A stretch of 54,780 nucleotides of DNA from Macrostomum lignano. Taxonomy: Eukaryota. The position numbers and the translations under genes were made by a program. Of the stretch, positions 47,485 to 49,528 are shown in pieces. The notes beneath the pieces are model-generated. The model had not been told where the DNA came from. It saw only the letters and a program-made list of their open reading frames with translations, and made no database searches. The DNA lies in assembly GCA_002269645.1 (NCBI GenBank), contig NIVC01001241.1, positions 1-54,780 on the forward strand. Reading direction: 5' to 3'. Every line of letters starts with the position of its first letter. The first letter of the stretch is position 1.

Positions 47485-47985
47485 TCAAGCGTCTCTCTCT
47501 ACCCCCATATCTTTCAAAAGTCTTCCCATTTGTTTGTTAGGAGCGCACAAAATAAACCCCGCTCCTGAGCCTCCGCCCTCTCTCCTCGTGCACCAGCCCT
47601 CTCTCCCTGTGCACCCGCCCTCGCCTTCAACCCCCAACCCCAACTTTGTTTTACTAAAAATAACAGCTTTAACTAGCTTCCGAGCGATCGACTCACGAAA
47701 TCCGCTTGAAGCCCCTATATTGTCTAGTCTCTTAAGCATTTCTTTGTCCCAGCGATTCTTCTCCTCAGGAAAATCTCTATATTTAACATCGTGCCACATG
47801 CAGACAGAGTCTAGCTCGTTCACAGGCTCATGCCCAGGATTTGGATTATTGTTTGTATCTAACTGTATTTCAAGTGGATTCAAAGGCCCACAATATTTGT
47901 ACCCGGGAATGGTCCAGCCTTTGTTTGGATGAGGAAGCTTTTGTATCAGTCCATGTGAATCTAACTTACCACCAGAGCGTTGCAT
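47485..47985 (-). CDS. Parvovirus VP1u-type phospholipase A2 domain protein (166 aa)
   Basis: Ca-binding loop WTIPGYKYCGPLN and catalytic helix PVNELDSVCMWHDVKY, followed by a Gly-rich tail. Confidence 0.9.
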   Translation of the reverse strand: MQRSGGKLDSHGLIQKLPHPNKGWTIPGYKYCGPLNPLEIQLDTNNNPNPGHEPVNELDSVCMWHDVKYRDFPEEKNRWDKEMLKRLDNIGASSGFRESIARKLVKAVIFSKTKLGLGVEGEGGCTGREGWCTRREGGGSGAGFILCAPNKQMGRLLKDMGVERDA

Positions 47986-48015
47986 TATTTTATTTTAAAT
48001 TTTCTTTTTAAAAAA

Positions 48016-49052
48016 ATGACAGATCAGAAACTTAAAAAACTCTACTACAGCGACAAAGGATTCTTTGTAGGAAAAAATGCAGTCACCAAACTCGCAGAAC
48101 TAAGCAAGGAACCAAAAGCTAGAGTAGAAAAGTGGCTCTCTAAGCAGGCTGTCTTTCAAGTCTATTTCCCACCAGTAAAATTTACAAGACCTCGCTTTAG
48201 CATCTATAAACCTAATGAAGCGCACCAAGCAGATCTTTTGTTTCTCCCCAATGACTCGGGCTACAAGTATGCTCTCACAATTACAGACGTTGCTTCCAGA
48301 TATAAGGAAGCTCGCCCACTCAAGACGAAGAAGTCAGAGGTTGTTGCCAGCGCACTGCAAGATATTTATAAAAACTCACCCTTAGTTACCCTGAAATGTT
48401 CATGACCGACCCGGGTAAGGAATTCATGGGTGCAGTGAAATCCCTTATGGAAAAGCACAATACAGAGATTCGCTATGGCAGAACAAACTTGCACAGAGAC
48501 CAAGCGTACGTTGAGAGATTCAATCTAACTCTAGCCAAGAGGCTATTCACTAAGCAGACAGCTGAGGAGCTGAAACTAAAAAGTGGTCAGTACTATTCAA
48601 AATGGACAGACCGGCTCCCCACTGTTATAGAGCAACTGAACAATGAAGTCACACGTATGACTGGATTGAAACCGTCCCATGCAATTAAACAAGACACTGT
48701 CGAACTTAAGTCATCTCATAAAACAGACAACAACACGACAACCCCACACAATACACACAACACAAAACACACCTCGAACTACCCTAAGCTTCCAGGAGTT
48801 GAATCACCATACATACTGACAAACTCTGAGTTTCTACGCTTTTTATATCTACCTGGAGAGCTAGAGAAAGACACCAAAAGAAGAGCTACAGATCCATACT
48901 TCAGCCTTGATGTACATAAAATAGACAGACATTTTACCTCCGACTCCAGTGACTATTACTTTTTATCTCAGGCCTTTAACCCTAAATCCCCCACACGGTC
49001 ATTCACTAGAGCTGAACTCCTAGTGATACCAGCTGACACGGAAATTAATTAA
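48016..49052 (+). CDS. Retroviral-like (rve) DDE integrase of Polinton type, one frameshift near 48380
   Basis: AHQADLLFL...YKYALTITDVASRY, MTDPGKEF and QAYVERFNLTL (D-x34-E). Adding one C to TCACCCTTAG restores SPLSYPEMFMTD. No chromodomain was seen. Confidence 0.93.
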
Positions 49053-49069
49053 AATATTAAAATAAAAAA

Positions 49070-49528
49070 ATGACAAAGATTGAAACCAGAACCATCAATA
49101 AACTCAATAAAATCATTGAATCAAAGAAACCAGGTCTTATTTCAATTAAAGGTATCAAAGTTAAGGTTGATCCCACACAGCAAATAGTTGAGTGTAATGA
49201 GCAAAGACACAGTATCACAGATGAAAAGTCAGGAGGAATCCTACCATTAGCAGCTCTTATTCCGATCATTGCAGGCGCTGTAAGTGCCGCAGGTGGTGTA
49301 GCTGGAGGTGTAGCAACTGCTGTTAAAGCTGGGAATGATAGAGCCCACCAGCTAGAATTGCAAAAGATTGCAAGAGATAAAGGTATAACAATTAAGGCAG
49401 GAGATGGTTGCCCTGAGGGCTGCCCCGATCGTGATGATTGTGAGCATGAAAATTCTGTAAGCAAGTCTGACATTGTCAAAGCCATCATGACACTGCACAA
49501 TGCTGGGTTTACAATAATGCGCATGTGA
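49070..49528 (+). CDS. Adenovirus protein X (mu precursor)-like core protein (152 aa)
   Basis: KSGG-ILPLAALIPIIAGAVSAAGGVAGGVATAV resembles the adenoviral pX GG-cleaved hydrophobic segment (GGILPLLIPLIAAAIGA type). Confidence 0.7.
   Translation: MTKIETRTINKLNKIIESKKPGLISIKGIKVKVDPTQQIVECNEQRHSITDEKSGGILPLAALIPIIAGAVSAAGGVAGGVATAVKAGNDRAHQLELQKIARDKGITIKAGDGCPEGCPDRDDCEHENSVSKSDIVKAIMTLHNAGFTIMRM

Follow-up and report, generated by a model that had tools for sequence, protein, structure and literature searches.

The window analysed here (the whole 54,780-nt stretch of Macrostomum lignano contig NIVC01001241.1) carries a stand-alone parvovirus-type PLA2 gene that diverges from an integrase gene, and a pX-like gene lying on the strand opposite to the PLA2 gene, about 1.1 kb away. 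The question raised by this locus is whether the split of PLA2 and pX and the divergent gene order are unusual. The feature is real and mostly known, and belongs to a Maverick-Polinton in which PLA2 and the pX-like protein each have a gene of their own. Nor is such a separation new, since many Polinton-like viruses have it; only the tight head-to-head placement of PLA2 and integrase is unusual, a modest variant with a shared leader.

Identity of the element

The element is an endogenous Maverick-Polinton (adintovirus-like) of an animal, with its capsid genes and right end outside the window. This reading follows from an animal-like flank together with PolB, rve, putative protease and PLA2 genes: the flanking DNA is repeat-rich and animal-like and holds a fibrinogen-domain gene, and within the element Pfam matches were obtained for PLA2, rve, pX and PolB. 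The features are listed in Table 1. The polymerase matched PF03175 with E 2.6e-8 (33.6 bits, cut-off 25.8), the first piece of the integrase matched PF00665 with E 2e-5 (25.2 bits, under the cut-off of 32.6 because the gene is broken), and the first piece of the protease (71 aa) matched PF00770 weakly (E 0.032). Frame breaks were observed in the integrase (two frames), the polymerase (three pieces) and the protease (in pieces), and contigs of four runs differed from the window by small indels in some of the broken regions, so the breaks may be copy-specific or assembly errors. Polinton ends begin with 5'-AG. No long inverted repeat involving the candidate left end near 45,000 was found in 40,000-54,780.

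Table 1. Coordinates of the features in the window
Feature	Position	Strand	Remarks
Candidate left end, AGTAGA at 45000, then 82-90-nt tandem repeats	45000-45353	.	low-depth flank contig of run X6 stops at 45028
Three small ORFs (45466-45702, 45914-46324, 46512-46907)	45466-47296 (with array)	+	without Pfam matches
84-nt tandem array	46976-47296	.	same left region as the three small ORFs
Stand-alone parvovirus-type PLA2, intact, 166 aa	47485-47985	-	PF08398 E 1.4e-13, above curated cut-off
KLGLG hinge, candidate viral-protease site closing the PLA2 core	47632-47646	-	cleavage predicted
Second Asp (D80) in WDKEM	47737-47751	-	read from ORF
Catalytic motif HDVKY	47779-47793	-	H65, D66, Y69
Calcium-loop motif YCGPL	47881-47895	-	read from ORF
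RSGG, candidate N-terminal protease site of PLA2	47968-47979	-	motif
PLA2/integrase spacer	47986-48015	.	30 nt, 29/30 A+T; AT-rich A-run leader both ways
Integrase (rve)	48016-49052	+	reading frame changes near 48,390; each piece matches relatives' integrases
Stand-alone pX-like gene, 152 aa	49070-49528	+	PF05829 Adeno_PX E 4.8e-7, above cut-off
KSGG site	49226-49237	+	directly before hydrophobic helix
Hydrophobic helix	49238-49324	+	hydropathy 2.08 over 19 aa
Protein-primed DNA polymerase B	49653-53526	+	three reading-frame pieces; matches PolB of relatives
Candidate adenain-like cysteine protease	53602-54001	+	broken in window copy
Unnamed gene, in pieces	54209-54706	-	start with same leader as polymerase gene

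In the surroundings, a host gene with a fibrinogen C-terminal domain (43950-44926, PF00147 E 7e-31) ends about 70 nt before the candidate element end. Positions 1-11063 are a 62-nt satellite array (178 copies, 99% identity); the window also has many other minisatellites and a (TAC)307 run at 29143-30064, and at 42842-43293 lies an array of 16-nt units that ends in an inverted copy (arms of up to 39 nt) and resembles a hairpin or MITE. Over 45800-47600, contig depth in each of the four runs was 10- to 100-fold below the level of the core genes, and it may be that only some copies have these small ORFs and the PLA2 tail, or have them in similar form. In run X6, single polymerase contigs had depths of 1153-1400 against 11-14 for flank contigs (about 100 times). 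The stretch 47600-54400 was present in 20 runs from 8 studies of one organism, and 15 of 22 tested substitutions in it were synonymous. The depth, which is not a copy count, and the synonymous bias hint at a high-copy family under constraint.

The PLA2 gene

The PLA2 consists of a core (about residues 9-118), the protease-site-like KLGLG hinge and a tail of about 48 aa. The YCGP and HD-x2-Y motifs given as intact in the preliminary description were confirmed, reading YCGPL and HDVKY, and H65, D66, Y69 and D80 were invariant in all 10 aligned close PLA2 sequences. The close homologs, from a search covering lengths of 91-291 aa only, were nine stand-alone PLA2s of 145-180 aa with 54-61% identity and a common C-terminal tail. 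The fifth residue of the Ca loop is Leu in the window PLA2; Gly was found there in only 40 of 133 loop-bearing homologs and another residue in 93, and the loop of AAV VP1 (YLGPF), a protein matched by the PLA2 profile with E 5.5e-7, is likewise non-Gly. No second Y[CT]GP or GG[FI][LI]P motif was found elsewhere in the six frames of the window. The PLA2 linker contains a tandem duplication of 21 nt at 47575-47622.

A structural match had been named beforehand as a check on the PLA2 assignment. A first model (10 sequences, pLDDT 57) gave no structural match at E<=0.001. In a model from 32 sequences, pLDDT was >90 over most of residues 21-110, and structure searches with the PLA2 models placed PLA2s on top with modest scores: the best solved match was rice PLA2 2wg7 (rmsd 3.4 over 89 residues, with a Z of 8.3 that lies within the range reached by chance among helical bundles), and the best viral matches were entomopoxvirus PLA2 and parvovirus VP1 (E 7e-4 to 9e-4). 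Invariant catalytic residues and the modelled PLA2 fold point to a real and probably active enzyme.

The pX-like gene

The GG and hydrophobic segment previously placed in its own ORF after the integrase was indeed matched by PF05829, the match sitting at KSGG directly followed by ILPLAALIPIIAG. Sixteen homologous matches were obtained, of which 10 were full-length stand-alone proteins of 124-157 aa. Adenovirus pX (pre-mu) has an Arg-rich mu peptide before the GG and a hydrophobic C-terminal part. An Arg-rich mu-type peptide before the GG is absent from the window ORF, where the preceding 20 residues contain one Arg and have a net charge of -2; nine stand-alone homologs have 0-3 Arg before the GG. 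Judged by its sequence, the pX-like protein is like the hydrophobic C-terminal portion of adenovirus pX but unlike the mu peptide, which condenses DNA, and since the Arg-rich peptide is lacking, DNA condensation by this protein is not supported.

Separation of PLA2 and pX in relatives

A fused PLA2X gene is described as typical of Alpha adintoviruses in the available sections of PMC8502044. Separate PLA2 and pX genes are found in three published Polinton-like viruses (PMC11296320, Table S2), and viruses of this type were found together with entomopoxviruses (PMC11296320). The PLA2 ORF of the window gave no Adeno_PX match. Among the best 150 of 544 PLA2 cluster representatives, many of them partial and ranked in a way that favours the kin of the query, none matched Adeno_PX, nine matched rve and one matched an adenoviral protease. 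Motif and hydropathy searches were added because Pfam Adeno_PX misses even the PLA2X-like P0164, and by motif a pX-like tail was found in this one representative of the best 150. In 81 related PLA2 loci, counted after exclusion of 13 parvovirus-sized loci (L002-L014, about 5-6 kb, weak matches), a pX-like segment within the PLA2 frame was found in 0/81. A separate pX-like gene was found in 11 of the 17 related loci of at least 6 kb, L031 and L044 (both <6 kb) being excluded from this count; the pX-like match of L044 was rejected as an antisense-frame false positive.

The split of PLA2 and pX, earlier taken as unusual, is therefore shared with three published viruses and with most of these long loci. 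The preliminary description had held that it would be refuted if the arrangement were the standard one in described relatives, and with PLA2 and pX separate in described relatives, this is largely what was found. With this locus, the elements known to have PLA2 and the pX-like protein on separate genes are joined by a Maverick-Polinton lineage of an animal, and PLA2X is one among several gene arrangements in which a mobile PLA2 module occurs.

In the PLA2 tree, whose deep branches are poorly supported and which sampled one PLA2X, the window PLA2 and its nine solo homologs formed a supported clade (98/98). The next most similar cores were integrase-linked (43-54% identity) and nearer than the single pX-fused one (36%), in a homolog sample ranked by likeness to the query and under-sampling PLA2X forms; integrase fusions made up three of the four longer homologs. 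The supposed derivation of the window PLA2 by a split from PLA2X is thus doubtful on sequence comparison and not the simplest reading.

The spacer, the leaders and the head-to-head order

The two ATGs of PLA2 (47985) and integrase (48016), reported to be 30 bp apart, have exactly 30 nt between them. A leader test (A+T of 80% or more over the 30 upstream nt and five or more A among the final seven, with cut-offs set after inspection) was applied to the ATGs on both strands of 45,050-54,730. Six of 350 ATGs passed, all of them core-gene starts (PLA2, integrase, pX, polymerase, protease and the minus-strand gene at 54706), and the other 344 failed. The leader is common to all six genes whatever their orientation or gap (17, 30, 75, 124 nt), and only 5 of 67 PLA2 genes of relatives passed the same test. 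Only 17 nt separate the pX ATG from the integrase stop before it, making short spacing a general trait of the window element; since 39 of 42 protease-to-PLA2 gaps in relatives are also <=30 nt, mostly overlaps (starts picked mechanically), tight packing is normal. The leaders could serve as promoter, start-codon context or both, and an A-rich start context alone could explain them. Promoters overlapping the opposite coding regions, as previously proposed, are possible. A uniform leader of about 30 nt, used two ways, is a small, testable handle on Polinton gene transcription.

The leaders of the polymerase gene and the 54706 gene (49629-49660, 54699-54730) are 84% alike over 32 nt and read T-tract, AG, A-run, ATG, like splice acceptors. 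Trans-splicing as a general cause of the leaders was rejected, four of the six having no T-tract-AG near the ATG, and a sigma-70 promoter scan was disregarded as meaningless for a eukaryotic element.

Head-to-head PLA2 and integrase genes were found in 0/72 related loci with both genes, all from a sister subclade, the 81 loci coming from a scan built on that subclade (A4) and not on the PLA2 subclade of the window. Closer relatives with DNA context were found neither in viral contigs (queries PLA2, A1, A2, A5, the polymerase C-terminal piece and the integrase piece) nor in metagenome contigs or prokaryote genomes (query A1). In the accessible portions of the literature, work on animal Polinton promoters was not found, the papers retrieved dealing with virophages and protist Polinton-like viruses instead.

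Candidate protease sites and proposed mechanism

Adenain sites have the forms xxGG and xxGxG. The candidate sites in PLA2 and pX follow both forms with a basic P4, and the pX helix is flanked by KSGG and KAGDG. A KLGLG-type hinge was observed in 69 of 150 homologs, with K/R at P4 in 59 of the 69, and K/R-x-G-G preceded the pX helix in 11/11 sequences examined; GG or GxG upstream of the PLA2 core was observed in 56 of 92 homologs, a count without background control.

The best explanation, with a probability of about 0.7 as a whole, is that 47485-49528 is the minor virion-protein and integrase block of the Maverick-Polinton, and it builds on observed gene identities, intact catalytic motifs, fold, separate genes and a shared leader. 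PLA2 and the pX-like protein would be packaged in precursor form inside the particle, and the adenain-like protease of the element would cut them at K/R-x-G-G or K/R-x-G-x-G sites. Cleavage would free a Ca-dependent PLA2 of about 110 aa and the hydrophobic helix, which may together help to breach the endosomal membrane at entry. PLA2 and integrase would be expressed in opposite directions from the AT-rich 30-nt spacer, which would serve both genes as one compact start signal; their 5' leaders would be very short, and upstream elements, if any, would lie within the neighbouring coding regions. Should cleavage take place at this hinge in the fused forms too, the mature particle would hardly differ between fusion and separation. 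For Polinton PLA2 or lipases, a role in entry was proposed earlier in the available text of PMC4642659 and PMC8502044, and a membrane-penetration role for Polinton lipases also in that of PMC5803895; the 'Macc' class in PMC11071296 (section 16, as far as available) is cited for the lipase entry role.

The persistent linkage of PLA2 and integrase would also be explained if the PLA2 acted inside the cell with the integrase, for example in nuclear-envelope passage, and not as a virion entry factor. PLA2 is fused to the integrase or stands directly before it in 70 of 81 related loci, and in the window it still adjoins the integrase, even in inverted order. However, co-packaging of the integrase explains the fusion equally well, and cytosolic Ca is low for this enzyme class. 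With solo PLA2 genes occurring in Polinton-like viruses without rve integrase (PMC11296320), an intracellular role appears quite improbable. Another history would be a recent split and partial inversion of a canonical adintovirus PLA2X in the window lineage. PLA2X is typical of Alpha adintoviruses (PMC8502044, available part of section 3.2), and the window PLA2 core aligns with P0164 (E 2e-17) as far as the hinge, beyond which the pX part would follow. A pX fusion was nevertheless found in only 1 of the best 150 homologs (of 544), and this one is far from the window PLA2 by identity and in the tree; the window pX and the P0164 tail are barely alike (E 0.055), and three of the four nearest longer homologs are integrase-fused, which makes such a split decidedly unlikely.

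For the gene order, it is most improbable that the head-to-head placement is peculiar to one decayed or mis-assembled copy: depth is high throughout 47,600-54,400 in 4/4 runs, none of the 15 contig joints listed (22 more exist) falls at the spacer, the spacer reads as a leader both ways, and the nine close PLA2 homologs are also stand-alone with a conserved tail. These points outweigh the several frame breaks of the window copy, the 0/72 relatives with this order and the spacer being spanned by none among the contigs listed (32 of >13,000 pieces). The A-run leaders might instead be compact promoters that a large cytoplasmic DNA virus, co-infecting the host, reads with its transcription machinery; the element would then be like a virophage in its parasitism, and the 30-nt spacer would be a promoter complete in both directions. 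Initiators of poxviruses and giant viruses are of the TAAA type, promoter sharing is known in virophages, and the six core genes all have one type of leader, whatever their orientation or gap. On the other side, the leader motif amounts to no more than AT-richness and an A-run, two of the six leaders (polymerase and ORF 54706) are also similar to splice acceptors of the T-tract-AG kind, no helper is needed if host Pol II works with an A-rich start context, and we know of no helper virus for the host. Even with the entomopoxvirus association of Polinton-like viruses that have separate PLA2 and pX (PMC11296320) counted in its favour, a helper-read promoter is unlikely.

PLA2-integrase fusion and probable frameshift in related loci

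In the 81 related loci (L001, L015-L094), PLA2 and integrase formed one ORF in 53, and in 17 the integrase ORF directly followed PLA2, 16 of these in the -1 frame. An in-frame X_XXY_YYZ heptamer was observed in the overlap in 14 of the 17 split loci (1.25 loci expected; background 14/2601 positions elsewhere in the same ORFs), the three others having no slippery site. Nine of the 14 heptamers were A_AAA_AAC or U_UUA_AAC just behind the KLGLG hinge, and a strong hairpin lay 5 nt downstream in 6/14 loci (z -3.7 to -5.2 vs base shuffles); example sites are L015:600-700, L016:520-620, L019:870-960 and L023:3580-3670. Of the A-run cases, five come from a single family (75-90% identical) and could be homopolymer errors, and L015 and L017 are 92% alike. 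The sequences of the split loci suggest a programmed -1 frameshift that would yield a Gag-Pol-like PLA2-integrase polyprotein.

K-N or L-N within 10 residues of the hinge was observed in 13 of 34 short-tailed PLA2s, including P0074, P0091, P0095, P0097, P0099, P0113, P0124, P0148, P0159 and P0171 (background 30/374 windows; 0/19 in-frame integrase fusions), and many PLA2s taken as 'stand-alone' may represent only the upstream half of what a frameshift yields. A PLA2-integrase frameshift was not found in the open literature, including the accessible portions of PMC3671162, PMC4642659, PMC7805220 and PMC11071296, the last of which, in those portions, predicts frameshifts only for penton and hexon-protease. 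Other architectures were observed as well: P0032 is a PLA2 fused to an adenain-like protease, P0154 is a PLA2 fused to an integrase N-terminus of the window's type, and a DUF5679 domain is N-terminal in 19 of the best 150 of 544. In L075, L076 and L077, PLA2 is N-terminal in an ORF of about 450 aa without integrase match, adjoined by a divergent polymerase on the opposite strand.

Since the window PLA2 has an ordinary tail behind the hinge, the probable frameshift is context and not part of the window finding, although fusion and apparent frameshift in the relatives are more interesting than that finding itself; a frameshift-joined polyprotein, if true, would be a mechanism for carrying the integrase into the cell. 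It is a tentative possibility that in a wide Polinton-like group PLA2 is the virion-loading leader of the integrase, like Gag for Pol, and that the window lineage resolved the polyprotein into a head-to-head pair. PLA2 and integrase would then be joined in frame or by -1 frameshift and released by the viral protease at the KLGLG hinge, and the head-to-head genes would remain under common regulation from a single two-way promoter of 30 nt, perhaps a compact one that the polymerase of a helper virus reads.

Comparison with known systems

Alpha adintoviruses, or group 2 Maverick-Polintons (PMC8502044; bioRxiv 10.64898/2026.06.19.733378; both as far as available), share with the window element the PF03175 polymerase, rve integrase and adenain-like protease (a candidate in the window), and, by the same sections of PMC8502044, the setting in an animal genome, the parvovirus-type PLA2 and the pX-like segment. 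They differ in the PLA2X gene described there, PLA2 and pX being on separate genes in the window, and the window PLA2 is transcribed away from the integrase. The adintovirus definition, in the available text of PMC8502044 and PMC11071296, includes an OTU-like N-terminal PolB domain and an integrase chromodomain; neither domain was matched by Pfam on the window PolB or integrase.

AHEV_PLV1 and AHEV_PLV2 as well as CBEV_PLV1 (PMC11296320) have in common with the window a stand-alone PLA2 (139-179 aa), an adenain-type protease (a candidate in the window) and a separate 'L2 mu core' (PF05829-like) gene, but are lepidopteran and without rve integrase. With the VP1-unique PLA2 of parvoviruses and densoviruses (PF08398), the window PLA2 shares the Ca loop, HDxxY, the second Asp, the helical fold and the presumed endosomal-escape role; it is not joined to a capsid protein and is flanked by protease-site-like Gly motifs. 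Adenovirus protein X or pre-mu (PF05829) likewise has GG followed by an ILP-led hydrophobic helix (profile positions 9-39 of 42), while the window protein has no Arg-rich mu peptide and has longer N- and C-terminal parts.

The uncultured Polinton-like loci L001 and L015-L094 contain the nearest longer relatives of the PLA2 core (43-54% identity) in a protease/PLA2-integrase block, with PLA2 adjoining the integrase and pX on its own gene, as in the window. In these loci PLA2 and integrase lie on the same strand, fused in frame or in -1 overlap, whereas the window pair diverges and its integrase has a different N-terminus.
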